The position numbers were made by a program, and so were the translations under genes. Below the pieces are notes generated by a model. It did not search any database. It was not told where the DNA came from and saw only the letters and a list, made by a program, of their open reading frames with translations. This document shows, piece after piece, positions 10,720 through 60,466 of a stretch of DNA of 64,000 nucleotides. Location: assembly GCF_003334355.1 (NCBI RefSeq), contig NZ_QOWP01000012.1; one strand, written 5' to 3'. The first letter of the stretch is position 1, and each line of letters opens with the position of its first letter. The DNA comes from Escherichia coli (lineage in GTDB: Bacteria > Pseudomonadota > Gammaproteobacteria > Enterobacterales > Enterobacteriaceae).

Positions 10720-11235
10720 ATGCGCTACAGCAAATTGACAATGCTTATCCCCTGCGCACTGCTCCTCAGTGCCTGCACCACAGTCACTCCAGCTTATAAA
10801 GATAACGGCACACGCAGTGGTCCTTGCGTTGAAGGAGGCCCGGATAACGTGGCCCAGCAATTTTATGACTACCGCATTTTGCACCGCAGCAACGACATCA
10901 CCGCCTTGCGCCCTTATCTGAGCGACAAACTGGCGACACTGCTTAGCGATGCCTCCCGGGATAATAACCATCGGGAACTACTGACCAACGATCCATTCTC
11001 CAGTCGAACCACCTTGCCAGACAGCGCCCACGTTGCCAGTGCATCGACTATCCCTAATCGTGATGCCCGTAACATTCCTTTGCGCGTGGATCTTAAACAG
11101 GGTGACCAGGGCTGGCAGGATGAAGTGTTAATGATTCAGGAAGGCCAGTGTTGGGTCATCGACGATGTGCGTTACTTAGGCGGTAGCGTTCATGCCACGG
11201 CGGGTACGCTCCGTCAGTCCATCGAGAATCGCTAA
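10720..11235 (+). CDS. ybjP: Putative lipoprotein YbjP
   Basis: 171 aa; signal peptide with lipobox LLSAC. Confidence 0.85.
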   Translation: MRYSKLTMLIPCALLLSACTTVTPAYKDNGTRSGPCVEGGPDNVAQQFYDYRILHRSNDITALRPYLSDKLATLLSDASRDNNHRELLTNDPFSSRTTLPDSAHVASASTIPNRDARNIPLRVDLKQGDQGWQDEVLMIQEGQCWVIDDVRYLGGSVHATAGTLRQSIENR

Positions 11236-11381
11236 CGCCTTGATCAACCAATAAACCCCGTAAATTGTCCGGCATTTCGTGAGGAATGCCGACATTTATG
11301 CTCGCCGACCACCGCCCCCGTTATTTTGTGCTATGTTTATTGAATAATGCGCTTTGCTTTTAACTTTTAAAGCAGAAATAT

Positions 11382-11395
11382 TGCATAATTATTCT
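11382..11395 (+). promoter_or_regulatory. ARG-box-like sequence TGCATAATTATTCT in the artP promoter region
   Basis: Resembles the TGAAT-N4-ATTCA core of ArgR boxes (8 of 10). artPIQM is known to be arginine-repressed. A second weaker TGAATAATGC lies at 11341-11350. Confidence 0.35.
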
Positions 11396-11452
11396 GTCAA
11401 AGGTACTATCTTCGACCTCAATAGCTATCAGACTGCCAGTATACGAGTGTCA

Positions 11453-12181
11453 ATGAGTATTCAATTAAACGGCATTAATTGCTTCTACGGCGCGCATCAG
11501 GCGCTGTTCGATATCACGCTGGATTGCCCACAGGGCGAAACGCTGGTGTTACTTGGCCCCAGCGGCGCGGGTAAAAGCTCGCTGCTGCGTGTACTCAATC
11601 TGCTTGAGATGCCGCGCTCCGGTACGCTCAACATTGCAGGCAACCATTTCGATTTCACCAAAACACCCTCTGACAAAGCGATTCGCGATTTGCGTCGTAA
11701 CGTTGGCATGGTGTTTCAGCAATACAACCTGTGGCCGCATCTGACCGTGCAGCAAAACCTGATTGAAGCGCCCTGCCGTGTACTGGGGTTGAGTAAAGAT
11801 CAGGCGCTGGCCCGTGCAGAAAAACTGCTGGAACGTCTGCGTCTCAAACCTTATAGCGATCGTTACCCGCTGCATCTTTCTGGTGGTCAGCAGCAGCGTG
11901 TTGCTATTGCCCGTGCGTTGATGATGGAACCGCAGGTACTGCTGTTCGATGAACCGACCGCCGCACTGGACCCGGAAATTACGGCACAAATCGTCAGCAT
12001 CATTCGTGAGCTGGCAGAAACGAATATTACCCAGGTGATCGTCACCCACGAAGTTGAAGTGGCGCGTAAAACCGCCAGCCGAGTGGTGTATATGGAAAAT
12101 GGTCATATCGTAGAACAAGGCGACGCGAGCTGCTTTACCGAGCCGCAAACCGAAGCATTTAAAAACTATCTCTCTCACTAA
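11453..12181 (+). CDS. artP: Arginine ABC transporter ATP-binding protein
   Basis: 242 aa from the ATG at 11453 ([13 protein letters not shown]); Walker [10 protein letters not shown] and signature LSGGQQQRV. Confidence 0.93.
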
Positions 12182-12198
12182 GATTCGGGATAACAACA

Positions 12199-12930
12199 AT
12201 GAAAAAAGTTCTGATTGCCGCGTTAATTGCAGGTTTTAGTCTTTCCGCCACAGCTGCCGAAACCATTCGTTTTGCTACCGAAGCCTCCTATCCTCCGTTT
12301 GAATCGATTGATGCAAACAACCAGATCGTTGGTTTTGACGTCGACCTGGCACAAGCGCTGTGTAAAGAGATTGATGCAACCTGCACTTTCTCTAACCAGG
12401 CGTTTGACAGCCTGATCCCAAGCCTGAAATTCCGTCGCGTAGAAGCCGTGATGGCGGGCATGGATATCACTCCGGAGCGTGAAAAGCAGGTGCTGTTTAC
12501 CACCCCGTACTATGACAACTCTGCCCTGTTTGTGGGTCAGCAAGGCAAATACACCAGTGTTGATCAGCTGAAAGGCAAAAAAGTCGGCGTACAGAACGGG
12601 ACGACACACCAGAAATTCATTATGGATAAGCACCCGGAAATCACTACCGTTCCGTATGACAGCTACCAGAACGCAAAACTGGATCTGCAAAACGGGCGTA
12701 TCGACGGCGTCTTCGGTGACACCGCAGTGGTCACTGAGTGGCTGAAAGATAACCCGAAACTGGCGGCGGTGGGCGACAAAGTGACCGATAAAGATTACTT
12801 CGGCACTGGCCTCGGCATCGCGGTACGTCAGGGCAACACTGAGCTGCAGCAGAAACTCAACACTGCGCTGGAAAAAGTGAAGAAAGATGGCACTTACGAA
12901 ACCATCTACAACAAATGGTTCCAGAAGTAA
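12199..12930 (+). CDS. artI: Arginine ABC transporter periplasmic binding protein
   Basis: 243 aa; signal peptide; clear paralogue of the downstream artJ product. Confidence 0.93.
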   Translation: MKKVLIAALIAGFSLSATAAETIRFATEASYPPFESIDANNQIVGFDVDLAQALCKEIDATCTFSNQAFDSLIPSLKFRRVEAVMAGMDITPEREKQVLFTTPYYDNSALFVGQQGKYTSVDQLKGKKVGVQNGTTHQKFIMDKHPEITTVPYDSYQNAKLDLQNGRIDGVFGDTAVVTEWLKDNPKLAAVGDKVTDKDYFGTGLGIAVRQGNTELQQKLNTALEKVKKDGTYETIYNKWFQK

Positions 12931-12936
12931 TTCCTG

Positions 12937-13653
12937 ATGAATGAATTTTTTCCTTTAGCAAGCGCCGCCGGGATGACCGTCGGCCTTGCCGTTTGTGCAT
13001 TGATTGTCGGGCTGGCGCTGGCGATGTTCTTTGCGGTATGGGAGTCGGCAAAATGGCGTCCTGTCGCGTGGGCAGGTTCAGCGCTGGTAACCATTCTGCG
13101 TGGCCTGCCAGAAATTCTGGTGGTGCTGTTTATCTATTTTGGCTCCTCGCAGCTGCTGCTGACGCTTTCGGATGGCTTCACTATCAATCTTGGGATTGTA
13201 GAGATCCCGGTGCAGATGCAGATTGAAAACTTCGACGTGAGTCCGTTCCTTTGCGGTGTCATCGCTCTGTCGCTGCTTTATGCCGCCTATGCCTCGCAAA
13301 CGCTGCGCGGCGCGTTGAAAGCGGTGCCGATGGGTCAGTGGGAATCCGGCCAGGCGCTGGGGCTGTCGAAATCGGCTATCTTTTTCCGTCTGGTGATGCC
13401 GCAGATGTGGCGTCATGCGCTGCCTGGCCTCGGTAACCAGTGGCTGGTGCTGCTCAAAGATACCGCGCTGGTCAGTTTGATTAGTGTGAATGATTTAATG
13501 CTACAAACCAAAAGCATTGCTACTCGTACCCAGGAACCATTTACCTGGTACATTGTGGCGGCGGCGATTTACCTGGTGATCACCCTGCTCAGTCAGTACA
13601 TTCTCAAACGCATTGACCTGCGCGCGACACGTTTTGAGCGGAGGCCCAGCTAA
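12937..13653 (+). CDS. artQ: Arginine ABC transporter permease
   Basis: 238 aa; polytopic; operon position. Confidence 0.92.
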
Positions 13654-14321
13654 TGTTTGAGTATTTACCCGAACTGATGAAAGGGCTGCACACCAGCCTG
13701 ACGCTAACCGTTGCCTCGCTGATTGTGGCACTGATTCTGGCATTGATTTTTACCATCATCCTGACGCTGAAAACGCCGGTGCTGGTGTGGCTGGTGCGGG
13801 GTTATATCACGCTGTTTACCGGTACGCCGCTGCTGGTGCAGATCTTCCTGATTTATTACGGGCCGGGCCAGTTTCCGACGTTGCAGGAGTATCCGGCACT
13901 GTGGCATTTGCTGTCAGAACCGTGGTTATGTGCGCTGATTGCGTTGTCGCTGAATAGTGCGGCGTATACCACGCAGCTGTTTTACGGTGCAATTCGTGCG
14001 ATCCCGGAAGGTCAGTGGCAGTCCTGTAGCGCCCTGGGAATGAGCAAAAAAGATACGCTGGCGATCCTGCTGCCGTATGCCTTTAAACGCTCGCTCTCTT
14101 CTTATTCCAACGAAGTGGTGCTGGTATTCAAAAGTACCTCTCTGGCATACACCATTACGCTGATGGAAGTGATGGGATACAGCCAGTTGTTGTACGGACG
14201 CACCTACGATGTAATGGTGTTCGGTGCGGCAGGGATTATTTACCTGGTCGTTAACGGCCTGCTGACGCTGATGATGCGTCTGATCGAGCGCAAAGCGCTG
14301 GCATTCGAACGGCGAAATTAA
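13653..14321 (+). CDS. artM: Arginine ABC transporter permease
   Basis: 222 aa; start overlaps the artQ stop by 1 nt (TAATG). Confidence 0.92.
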   Translation: MFEYLPELMKGLHTSLTLTVASLIVALILALIFTIILTLKTPVLVWLVRGYITLFTGTPLLVQIFLIYYGPGQFPTLQEYPALWHLLSEPWLCALIALSLNSAAYTTQLFYGAIRAIPEGQWQSCSALGMSKKDTLAILLPYAFKRSLSSYSNEVVLVFKSTSLAYTITLMEVMGYSQLLYGRTYDVMVFGAAGIIYLVVNGLLTLMMRLIERKALAFERRN

Positions 14322-14344
14322 TGTGGCTGCGTACATTCGCCGGG

Positions 14345-14442
14345 GGGTTTTGTAGGTCTGATAAGACGCGCCAGCGTCGCATCAGACATCAGCACGGTGC
14401 CTGTGCCGGATGCGGCGGGGACGCCTTATCCGGCCTACATAG
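14345..14442. repeat. REP/BIME cluster (two inverted REP units) downstream of artM
   Basis: GTAGGTCTGATAAGACGCGCCAGCGTCGCATCAGAC and GCCGGATGCGGCGGGGACGCCTTATCCGGCCTAC match the enterobacterial REP consensus. Confidence 0.85.
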
Positions 14443-14463
14443 TGCATAAATTCTTATAATGAA

Positions 14464-14497
14464 GACGGACAACCCACTAAGTTGTCCGTCTTTTTTA
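14464..14497 (+). terminator. Intrinsic terminator (10-bp stem GACGGACAAC/GTTGTCCGTC then T6)
   Basis: Perfect stem followed by TTTTTTATTT; lies between the artM BIME and the artJ promoter. Confidence 0.7.
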
Positions 14498-14526
14498 TTT
14501 CATTTAAATTATTTAATCATGTTTAT

Positions 14527-14540
14527 TGCATATAAATTCA
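14527..14540 (+). promoter_or_regulatory. ARG box TGCATATAAATTCA upstream of artJ
   Basis: 9 of 10 match to the TGAAT-N4-ATTCA core, about 75 bp upstream of the artJ ATG; artJ is a known strongly ArgR-repressed gene. Confidence 0.45.
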
Positions 14541-14611
14541 CTTGATGGCATTGTTATCCCATGCCGCAGACACGGCCAAAAATCATAAGATTGACAGACG
14601 GGAGTTCCATC

Positions 14612-15343
14612 ATGAAAAAGTTAGTTCTTGCCGCTTTACTTGCTTCCTTTACTTTCGGTGCTTCTGCCGCAGAGAAAATCAATTTTGGCGTTTCAGCCAC
14701 CTATCCACCCTTTGAATCTATAGGTGCTAATAATGAGATTGTCGGCTTTGATATCGATCTGGCAAAAGCCTTGTGCAAACAAATGCAGGCAGAATGTACT
14801 TTTACTAATCACGCGTTCGACAGCCTGATCCCGTCCCTGAAATTCAGAAAATATGACGCCGTAATCTCCGGTATGGATATCACCCCGGAGCGTAGCAAAC
14901 AGGTATCGTTTACCACGCCCTACTATGAAAACTCAGCCGTCGTGATTGCCAAAAAAGATACCTACAAAACGTTTGCCGATCTGAAAGGCAAACGTATTGG
15001 GATGGAAAACGGTACTACGCACCAGAAATATATTCAGGATCAGCACCCGGAAGTGAAAACTGTCTCTTATGACAGTTATCAGAATGCCTTTATCGATCTG
15101 AAAAATGGTCGTATTGATGGGGTATTTGGTGACACAGCGGTGGTAAACGAATGGCTGAAAACCAATCCACAACTTGGTGTTGCTACTGAGAAAGTGACCG
15201 ATCCGCAATATTTTGGCACCGGCCTGGGCATCGCTGTACGTCCGGATAACAAAGCCCTGCTGGAAAAACTGAATAACGCGCTGGCAGCAATTAAAGCTGA
15301 CGGTACTTATCAAAAAATCAGTGACCAGTGGTTCCCACAGTAA
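14612..15343 (+). CDS. artJ: Arginine-binding periplasmic protein ArtJ
   Basis: 243 aa from the ATG at 14612 (MKKLVLAALLASFTFGASA signal peptide). Confidence 0.93.
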   Translation: MKKLVLAALLASFTFGASAAEKINFGVSATYPPFESIGANNEIVGFDIDLAKALCKQMQAECTFTNHAFDSLIPSLKFRKYDAVISGMDITPERSKQVSFTTPYYENSAVVIAKKDTYKTFADLKGKRIGMENGTTHQKYIQDQHPEVKTVSYDSYQNAFIDLKNGRIDGVFGDTAVVNEWLKTNPQLGVATEKVTDPQYFGTGLGIAVRPDNKALLEKLNNALAAIKADGTYQKISDQWFPQ

Positions 15344-15391: not shown

Positions 15392-15492
<101 letters not shown>

Positions 15493-21403: not shown

Positions 21404-21753
21404 ATCTCTTTCCTTCTGAAAGTTCGTTAACAAACGAACAAAAGTTGTCACACTGAAAGATATGCAATAAACGTGCATATTTTTTATCGGCGCGGTGTAA
21501 GAAAAGAGAACTCTCTCCCGGCCAGCACTGCTCGCTATATAAAAGCATCGCAAGAATAACTTTAGCCAGGGTTTGAGACTATAGCTCGGATTAAAAAACG
21601 GTATTTAACAAATTTTTATGCGTATTTGCTCTATGTGATAAAGCCAAATCGACACAAGAGAAGTGAAATAATCTTTAAGAAAAGGTTAAAAACAGCAGAT
21701 AATTTTGCAGCGCGCAGCCACTGCACCAGCGACTGCGTGCTCGAAAGGAGTTA

Positions 21754-27053: not shown

Positions 27054-27165
27054 AACTGAAGTTGCCCTGAAAATGAAATTTTTTTGCACAACCGCAGAAC
27101 TTTTCCGCAGGGCATCAGTCTTAATTAGTGCCACTGCTTTTCTTTGATGTCCCCATTTTGTGGAG

Positions 27166-27209
27166 CCCATCAACCCCGCCATTTCGGTTCAAGGTTGATG
27201 GGTTTTTTG
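27166..27209 (+). terminator. Intrinsic terminator downstream of ybjL
   Basis: CCCATCAACC...GGTTGATGGG 10-bp stem followed by TTTTTTG. Confidence 0.55.
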
Positions 27210-27227
27210 TTATCTAAAATTTATCTA

Positions 27228-50817: not shown

Positions 50818-50900
50818 CAGGCCTGATAAGACGCGACAAGCGTCGCATCAGGCATTTGCTCCAGACGCCAGATGCGGCGTGAACGCCTTATCTGGCCTAC
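50818..50900. repeat. REP/BIME cluster between convergent moeB and fsaA
   Basis: GCCTGATAAGACGCGACAAGCGTCGCATCAGGC and CAGATGCGGCGTGAACGCCTTATCTGGCCTAC. Confidence 0.85.
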
Positions 50901-57572: not shown

Positions 57573-57676
57573 TAATGCCTGATGCGGCGTTAACGCCTTA
57601 TCCGGCCTACAAAGTCCTGCAGATTCAATATATTGCAGGTACTGCGTAGGCCTGATAAGCGTAGCGCATCAGGCTA
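57573..57676. repeat. REP/BIME cluster between ybiU and ybiT
   Basis: GCCTGATGCGGCGTTAACGCCTTATCCGGCCTAC and GTAGGCCTGATAAGCGTAGCGCATCAGGC, with an internal CCTGCA...TGCAGG hairpin. Confidence 0.85.
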
Positions 57677-59545: not shown

Positions 59546-60466
59546 ATGAATATGAAATTGAAAACATTATTCGCAGCGGCCTTCGCTGTTGTCGGCTTTT
59601 GCAGTACCGCCTCTGCGGTAACTTATCCTCTGCCAACCGACGGGAGTCGCCTGGTTGGTCAGAATCAGGTGATCACCATTCCTGAAGGTAACACTCAGCC
59701 GCTGGAGTATTTTGCCGCCGAGTACCAGATGGGGCTTTCCAATATGATGGAAGCGAACCCGGGTGTGGATACCTTCCTGCCGAAAGGCGGTACTGTACTG
59801 AACATTCCGCAGCAGCTGATCCTGCCGGATACCGTTCATGAAGGCATCGTCATTAACAGTGCTGAGATGCGTCTTTATTACTATCCGAAAGGGACCAACA
59901 CCGTTATCGTGCTGCCGATCGGCATTGGTCAGTTAGGCAAAGATACGCCTATCAACTGGACCACCAAAGTTGAGCGTAAAAAAGCAGGCCCGACCTGGAC
60001 GCCGACCGCCAAAATGCACGCAGAGTACCGCGCTGCGGGCGAACCGCTTCCGGCTGTCGTTCCGGCAGGTCCGGATAACCCGATGGGGCTGTATGCACTC
60101 TATATCGGTCGCCTGTATGCTATCCATGGCACCAACGCCAACTTCGGTATCGGCCTGCGTGTAAGTCATGGTTGTGTGCGTCTGCGTAACGAAGACATCA
60201 AATTCCTGTTCGAGAAAGTACCGGTCGGTACCCGCGTACAGTTTATTGATGAGCCGGTAAAAGCGACCACCGAGCCAGACGGCAGCCGTTATATTGAAGT
60301 CCATAACCCGCTGTCTACCACCGAAGCCCAGTTTGAAGGTCAGGAAATTGTGCCAATTACCCTGACGAAGAGCGTGCAGACAGTGACCGGTCAGCCAGAT
60401 GTTGACCAGGTTGTTCTTGATGAAGCGATTAAAAACCGCTCCGGGATGCCGGTTCGTCTGAATTAA
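59546..60466 (+). CDS. ldtB: L,D-transpeptidase (Lpp-peptidoglycan linking, YkuD domain)
   Basis: 306 aa; signal peptide; catalytic SHGCVRL motif. Confidence 0.92.

Follow-up and report, generated by a model that had tools for sequence, protein, structure and literature searches.

The 64,000-nucleotide stretch of DNA analysed here (the window) is an Escherichia coli chromosome segment with artPIQM and artJ, in which a preliminary description, made from the letters alone, had picked out two 14-bp sequences resembling ArgR half-site pairs, one upstream of each transcription unit, and had proposed arginine repression of both. Are these sequences genuine ArgR sites, and if so, do they represent the whole of each operator? 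We put the probability that both 14-mers are cores of the ArgR operators of artP and artJ at roughly 95%, in support of that interpretation. The biology of ArgR control of artPIQM and artJ, with Lrp competition at artP, is already known; the present case shows that a reader working from sequence only can recover true regulatory sites, and the matrix scan proposed as a check works cleanly.

Locus and transcription units

The operon artP-artI-artQ-artM, encoding an arginine ABC transporter, spans 11453–14321 (+ strand); its four genes were delimited from open reading frames, start and stop codons and RefSeq annotation of identical or near-identical DNA.

11453–12181, + strand: artP
12199–12930, + strand: artI
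12937–13653, + strand: artQ
13653–14321, + strand: artM
14355–14435: REP/BIME element between artM and the artJ control region (Rfam naRNA4, RF02564, 75.5 bits)
14461–14499, + strand: intrinsic terminator of artPIQM (stem-loop 14461–14493, then a T-run; 13-pair stem, 7-nt loop)
14612–15343, + strand: artJ, periplasmic arginine-binding protein (243-aa open reading frame; annotated in K-12 and other genomes)

ArtI and ArtJ share 65% identity over 241 aa (E = 2e-125) and are therefore paralogues, as had been suggested; their assignment to separate units is confirmed by the intrinsic terminator between artM and artJ, which shows compensatory changes at 6/8 consensus stem pairs across 20 genera. 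The REP/BIME element is missing at the same place in most other genera and lies outside the artJ operator. The span originally given for the observation (11341–14540) amounts to the entire artPIQM operon, from one site to the other.

Both 14-mers were found on the + strand where the preliminary description had placed them: TGCATATAAATTCA at 14527–14540, with the artJ ATG (14612) 72 bp downstream, and TGCATAATTATTCT at 11382–11395, with the artP ATG (11453) 58 bp downstream. The latter is given as an ArgR motif for the artI operon in Table 2 of PMC2585105.

Architecture, significance and conservation of the operators

A PWM was built from 16 ARG boxes in eight K-12 arginine operators unrelated to those of art (carAB, argF, argI, argA, argECBH, argD, argR and argG); its consensus, WNTGAATWWWWATTCANW, is an 18-bp imperfect palindrome, and the training boxes score 8.7–22.8 bits. 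When the window was scanned with this matrix, its two best matches fell exactly on the proposed coordinates, so that the outcome named beforehand as refuting the proposal, a lack of matches there, did not occur; each match had a partner at a fixed distance upstream.

14525–14542: artJ promoter-proximal ARG box ATTGCATATAAATTCACT, 20.8 bits, rank 1 of ~64,000 window positions; contains 14527–14540
14504–14521: artJ promoter-distal ARG box TTAAATTATTTAATCATG, 4.2 bits; degenerate in Escherichia
11380–11397: artP promoter-proximal ARG box ATTGCATAATTATTCTGT, 17.8 bits, rank 2 in the window; contains 11382–11395
11359–11376: artP promoter-distal ARG box TTTAACTTTTAAAGCAGA, 6.8 bits; degenerate

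In K-12 coordinates the boxes lie at 903,790–903,828 (artP) and 900,645–900,683 (artJ). The 14-mers are thus real box cores, although each is the core of one promoter-proximal 18-bp ARG box only. That each unit has a box of its own is borne out, but the operator also includes a degenerate second box, which at both artP and artJ lies on the upstream side of the proximal box across a gap of exactly 3 bp; this is the canonical two-box ArgR arrangement (the spacing in ArgR operators is 3 bp, or 2 bp at argR). The distal boxes rank only 117 (artJ) and 50 (artP) in the PWM scan of the window and could not be called singly; under a tandem model (box, 3 bp, box), artJ scores 24.9 (rank 1) and artP 24.7 (rank 2), the next independent site in the window reaching 9.5.

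Matches to the bare 14-mer consensus TGAATWWWWATTCA with two or fewer mismatches numbered seven in the window, when 2.9 were expected and five of 100 shuffles reached seven; as this count is not significant alone, it was replaced by the PWM and tandem model. A random 64-kb sequence is expected to contain 0.05 single boxes of at least 17.8 bits and none of at least 20.8 bits: its best single box scores 14.6 ± 1.7 bits, and the artJ score of 20.8 bits was reached in 0/200 such sequences. The best tandem in 200 random 64-kb sequences averaged 9.9 ± 3.3, with a maximum of 20.8. As a local control, each control region was subjected to 5000 dinucleotide shuffles; the observed single-box score was reached in 4/5000 for artP and 0/5000 for artJ, and the observed tandem score in 0/5000 for either. 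Calibration gave tandem scores of 21.8 for the validated hisJ operator, which lies outside the training set, and −6.7 for argT, which is not ArgR-regulated; leave-one-out tandem scores of the arginine biosynthetic operators ran from 20.4 to 39.6.

Several further candidates were discarded. TGAAT at 11341–11345, where the originally described span begins, scores −1.9 / −7.8 bits as a third artP box and is poorly conserved. Downstream of the artJ proximal box, a second box would score −8.0 at 14546–14563 (3-bp spacer) or 1.7 at 14545–14562 (2-bp spacer); the stretch is instead a conserved extended −10. ARG-like 18-mers over the artP start codon (11448–11465, 11.9 bits; 11452–11469, 11.3 bits) are in or at coding sequence and off the 21-bp register. 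Other PWM matches in the window, at 60457, 34401 and 42202 (13–15 bits), were treated as chance because they fall within the range of the best box in random 64-kb sequence and have no partner box.

Upstream regions were compared across related enterobacterial species (Escherichia, Salmonella, Citrobacter, Klebsiella, Enterobacter, Kosakonia, Buttiauxella, Cedecea and others). The top-scoring tandem was the orthologous operator at 78/79 artJ loci and 74/74 artP loci. The ARG boxes form conservation peaks inside their intergenic regions, with a mean identity across genera of 0.91 for the artJ proximal box and 0.86 for the artP distal box; the artP proximal box is kept in 74/74 loci. Around 60 bp at artP are almost totally conserved, which goes beyond the requirements of a degenerate ArgR site; further constraints (promoter, Lrp) therefore act there as well. 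Upstream of the artP operator, a further conserved block, TTATTTTGTGCTATGTTTA (11321–11339, + strand), has a mean identity of 0.89 among 75 distinct enterobacterial sequences, as against 0.52–0.59 in its flanks.

The low scores of the distal boxes in this strain would suit a reading in which each promoter has one functional ARG box and the distal boxes are non-specific flanking DNA. We regard this as very improbable: at both loci the higher-scoring partner is found upstream, at a spacing of exactly +3 bp; the artJ distal box reaches 8 bits or more in 80% of orthologous loci, with a maximum of 17.4; a weak second box is nothing unusual, those of argD and argR scoring 5.1 and 5.2 in leave-one-out analysis; and two boxes are described at both promoters (PMC6640053).

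The two-box operators compare closely with known ones. The K-12 artJ and artPIQM operators (Caldara et al. 2007, as relayed by Torres Montaguth et al. 2019, PMC6640053) have the same DNA, boxes, genes and terminator-separated units and, with the −35 as predicted here, would share the −35 overlap; no difference from these control regions was detectable in the window strain. The K-12 hisJQMP operon likewise encodes an amino-acid ABC transporter and has a two-box, 3-bp-spaced operator of similar strength (tandem 21.8); unlike those of art, however, its boxes are placed a little upstream of the −35 and give weaker repression, without simple exclusion of RNA polymerase (PMC6640053). The operators of argF, argI, argA, argECBH, carAB P2 and argG share the box consensus and 21-bp centre-to-centre geometry of art. 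Biosynthetic operators usually have two strong boxes (leave-one-out sums 28.6–39.6), whereas those of art pair one strong with one degenerate box (24.7–24.9); unlike art, they also often cover the −10 and show higher repression ratios.

Putative promoters and the route to repression

Putative promoters overlap the operators, and both place a TTGCAT −35 inside the proximal ARG box.

11381–11409, + strand: putative artP sigma-70 promoter (−35 TTGCAT 11381–11386, 17-bp spacer, −10 TACTAT 11404–11409)
14526–14554, + strand: putative artJ promoter (−35 TTGCAT 14526–14531, 17-bp spacer ending TGG, −10 CATTGT 14549–14554)

The artP −10 has a mean identity of 0.93 across genera. At artJ the TGG at the end of the spacer is an extended −10 TGn, and the promoter sequence TGGCATTGT has a mean identity of 0.95 (80 sequences). 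Transcription would probably start near 11414–11419 for artP and at ~14560–14562 for artJ; the G+C-rich stretch of artP from −96 to −116 has 76% G+C only with a start site at 11414, 11418 or 11419. These −35/−10 assignments are predictions from sequence whose geometry agrees with PMC6640053. The TTGCAT promoters were missed by a consensus promoter scan, their −35 matching at only 3/6 positions; the alternative that it offered at artP (TTAACT-18-CATAAT, 11360–11389) was rejected, being at odds with the published geometry and with where the G+C-rich stretch lies.

Because the predicted −35 hexamers sit within the proximal boxes, conservation alone cannot separate promoter from operator constraint; this placement and the near-chance count of simple consensus matches are what favour the view that AT-rich promoter sequence (the −35 region and UP-like DNA) resembles ARG boxes by chance, that only the promoter is conserved and that ArgR acts elsewhere or not at all, a view that is scarcely credible given PWM and tandem scores far above both whole-window and local AT-matched shuffles, the exact 3-bp spacing at both promoters, an artJ distal box in which the ARG-critical positions A6, T7, A12, C15 and A16 hardly vary between genera while W positions drift, and published binding and repression data on identical DNA (PMC6640053).

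Binding and repression by ArgR are taken here from the literature; the sequence match, two-box geometry, significance, cross-genus conservation and identity to K-12 are direct observations. The window strain is 99.45% identical to K-12 over 8.5 kb, and both control regions are 100% identical to those of K-12 MG1655 (0 differences, 220 + 293 bp). The claim that arginine and ArgR repress both units accordingly has published backing for DNA identical to the window, in the account of PMC6640053, which cites Caldara et al. 2007. At K-12 artP and artJ, that paper describes two 18-bp boxes, separated by 3 bp, to which ArgR binds and which overlap the −35 to the same extent at both promoters, with arginine-dependent repression; it includes an ArgR EMSA on the artP region of K-12 and credits footprints and ChIP to Caldara 2007 and Cho 2011/2015. 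Base-by-base equality of our boxes with the published ones is indicated by geometry and by this secondary description.

ArgR blocks RNA polymerase binding at PartJ, whose repressibility is ~9-fold higher than that of PartP; at PartP, ArgR gives a repressibility of 1.5-fold in wild-type cells and 4.4-fold when Lrp is missing, and the two proteins repress this promoter competitively (all PMC6640053). At artP, Lrp protects positions −67 to −95 and −86 to −112, counted from the transcription start site (PMC6640053), and the conserved TTATTTTGTGCTATGTTTA block would lie in this protected zone if transcription starts near 11414–11419.

The most likely mechanism is the following. When arginine is abundant, an arginine-loaded ArgR hexamer would occupy the two boxes from one side of the helix. 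Since the predicted −35 hexamer, TTGCAT at artP and artJ alike, and the greater part of the spacer fall within the proximal box, ArgR bound there would exclude RNA polymerase; this would lower artJ transcription strongly and that of artPIQM more weakly. At artP, Lrp would bind just upstream of the boxes and spread over them, sharing the region with ArgR, so that the two would compete.

A conserved TGCATAA upstream of the artJ operator

The artJ control region contains a further ARG-like sequence.

14441–14458: candidate auxiliary half ARG box AGTGCATAAATTCTTATA, PWM 10.7 bits, rank 11 in the window

The heptamer TGCATAA within it (14443–14449) corresponds to the left half of an ARG box and sits between the REP insertion and the artM terminator; the 18-bp frame starts 63 bp (3 × 21) upstream of the artJ distal box, on the same helical face. 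TGCATA occurs at −61 to −63 from the artJ distal box in 59/80 distinct enterobacterial loci. No equivalent box was found at about −63 in eight other operators, and the presence of TGCATAA showed no association with distal-box strength (Mann-Whitney p = 0.67). For the artM 3′ UTR, no covering Rfam family and no publication were found; a hairpin-position decomposition was too noisy for use.

That TGCATAA is either an undescribed auxiliary ArgR contact or a conserved RNA element of the artM 3′ UTR is a doubtful proposition, which we offer tentatively. As an RNA element, it might serve as a seed or processing site in the 3′ UTR; as an auxiliary contact, it might help DNA to wrap around the hexamer and add to the repression of artJ in vivo, which is much stronger than that of artP. 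If functional, TGCATAA would have a modest bearing on how artJ comes to be repressed ~9-fold more than artP despite similar affinity in vitro.

Organisation of the art locus

The region 11200–14620, annotated as ybjP / artP-artI-artQ-artM / artJ, has a match in every one of the 5,426 complete E. coli genomes. Identity to K-12 across 8.5 kb is 99.45%, indicating a different strain from K-12; two stretches are 100% identical to K-12 MG1655, the 220-bp artP control region and the 293-bp artM–artJ intergenic region. Window position x corresponds to K-12 position 915,187 − x. The preliminary description had treated artI and artJ as paralogues in separate units: ArtI and ArtJ are 65% identical, and the two-unit description is correct because an intrinsic terminator with covariation in six of eight stem pairs (20 genera) parts artM from artJ.

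Features of the art locus (window coordinates)
artP, 11453–12181
artI, 12199–12930
artQ, 12937–13653
artM, 13653–14321
Intrinsic terminator between artM and artJ, 14461–14493 plus T-run
artJ, 14612–15343
Predicted artP promoter: TTGCAT, 17 bp, TACTAT at 11404–11409
Predicted artJ promoter: TTGCAT, 17 bp, CATTGT preceded by TGG as an extended −10, 14546–14554

Paired ARG boxes upstream of artP and artJ

ArgR operators in E. coli consist of paired boxes separated by a 3-bp gap. Two 14-mers had been proposed as ARG-box-like half-site pairs, TGCATAATTATTCT upstream of artP and TGCATATAAATTCA upstream of artJ, and both were located as described, at 11382–11395 and 14527–14540. A match to the bare consensus is evidence of low weight: with ≤2 mismatches, the window holds seven such 14-mers against 2.9 expected. 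A symmetrised 18-bp position weight matrix was built from the 16 boxes of eight classical K-12 ArgR operators (carAB, argF, argI, argA, argECBH, argD, argR and argG), whose box pairs were found by consensus and to which the art locus contributed none. When the window was scanned with this matrix, the check suggested in the preliminary description, its top two matches among ~64,000 positions fell at exactly these sites: the promoter-proximal artJ box holding TGCATATAAATTCA (14525–14542, 20.8 bits) ranked first and the proximal artP box holding TGCATAATTATTCT (11380–11397, 17.8 bits) second. Random 64-kb first-order Markov sequences gave 0.05 matches ≥17.8 bits and none ≥20.8 bits.

We then scored box, 3-bp gap and box together. 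The artJ operator (14504–14542; TTAAATTATTTAATCATG ttt ATTGCATATAAATTCACT) ranked first in the window with a tandem score of 24.9 and the artP operator (11359–11397; TTTAACTTTTAAAGCAGA aat ATTGCATAATTATTCTGT) second with 24.7, the third-best independent tandem scoring 9.5. Across 200 random windows the top score was 20.8, and 5000 dinucleotide shuffles per control region produced no tandem at the observed score. The validated hisJ operator, outside the training set, scored 21.8 as positive control, argT, which is not ArgR-regulated, −6.7 as negative control, and the training operators 20.4–39.6 under leave-one-out. On these tandem, shuffle and control scores the art operators are genuine, lying toward the weaker end of the range; each pairs a strong promoter-proximal box with a degenerate distal one.

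Other ARG-like 18-mers occur in the window. Two overlapping examples straddling the artP start codon (11448–11469; 11.9 and 11.3 bits) are probably due to chance, as they lie within or next to coding sequence and their distance from the operator does not fit the 21-bp register. Another, ~200 bp upstream of potF (21607–21624, 9.7 bits; reverse complement TACGCATAAAAATTTGTT), is without a partner box and scores within chance expectation; a similar K-12 string at potF has been given as a putative ArgR motif (PMC2585105).

Predicted promoters and regulation by ArgR and Lrp

Both proximal boxes start with ATTGCATA. As TTGCAT plus 17 bp leads to each predicted −10, the proximal box would contain the −35 in both cases, in agreement with PMC6640053, where the boxes overlap the −35; the stretch with the predicted artJ extended −10 is 95% conserved. 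The G+C-rich stretch at −96 to −116 (76% G+C; PMC6640053) fits an artP transcription start at 11414, 11418 or 11419. An alternative artP promoter from a consensus scan (TTAACT, 18 bp, CATAAT; 11360–11389) was rejected as at odds with the published geometry and the position of the G+C stretch.

At artJ, artP and hisJ, hexameric arginine-bound ArgR occupies two 18-bp boxes with a 3-bp gap (PMC6640053, summarising Caldara et al. 2007, Cho et al. 2011/2015). ArgR excludes RNA polymerase from PartJ, which is ~9-fold more repressible than PartP at similar in vitro affinity (PMC6640053). PartP is also repressed ~3-fold by Lrp, whose sites lie just upstream and reach over the ARG boxes, so that ArgR and Lrp compete (PMC6640053). 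For the artI operon, TGCATAATTATTCT is independently given as ArgR motif in PMC2585105. Geometry and sequence identity with K-12 suggest that the art boxes are the published ones at base level. The proposed ArgR repression of both units is supported by the operators' place at the top of the matrix and tandem scans and by published repression in K-12 (PMC6640053); ArgR control of artP and artJ is already known biology. A strongly conserved block upstream of the artP ARG boxes, TTATTTTGTGCTATGTTTA (11321–11339), would coincide with the published Lrp-protected zone of the artP control region, given a transcription start near 11414–11419.

Conservation and neighbouring elements

An ArtJ scan using one genome per species yielded 80 loci from ~25 enterobacterial genera. 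Within 250 bp upstream, the orthologous operator was the top tandem in 78 of 79 artJ regions and in all 74 artP regions, despite a shifting start-codon distance (artP: −82 to −236). Boxes of both operators form peaks of conservation in the alignments, mean identity reaching 0.91 in the artJ proximal box versus 0.32–0.56 in upstream intergenic DNA, and 0.94 and 0.86 in the artP proximal and distal boxes versus 0.52–0.59. Within the artJ distal box the ARG-critical A6, T7, A12, C15 and A16 are fixed and the W positions variable. The ~60-bp artP promoter/operator (11359–11415) is nearly invariant over ~25 genera, which goes beyond the needs of ArgR recognition alone.

An inserted REP/BIME element (14355–14435; Rfam naRNA4/CssrE, 75.5 bits) lies between the stop codon of artM and the control region of artJ. 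Most other genera lack it at this position; the window holds another copy at 50820–50897. Between the element at 14355–14435 and the artM terminator sits an ARG-like 18-mer (14441–14458, 10.7 bits), starting 63 bp ahead of the distal artJ box, with TGCATAA (14443–14449) as its left half. Of 80 distinct enterobacterial loci, 59 have TGCATA at −61 to −63, in surroundings that diverge; in genera lacking the REP insertion it lies 1–15 nt past the artM stop codon. Speculatively, TGCATAA might be an auxiliary ArgR contact or else an RNA element of the artM 3′ UTR. Eight other ArgR operators have no comparable box nearby, the presence of the artJ element did not correlate with distal-box strength, no Rfam family covers the region and we found no paper on it.

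Two Rfam ES036 (CssrF) sRNA-family matches barely exceed the gathering score, one directly downstream of artJ (15415–15457, 42.2 bits) and one at 57611–57653 (41.6 bits). The RybB sRNA gene occupies 27133–27211 (Rfam RF00110, 105 bits), and strain 08-00022 differs from the window past ~27,223, having a P2-like prophage at this place.
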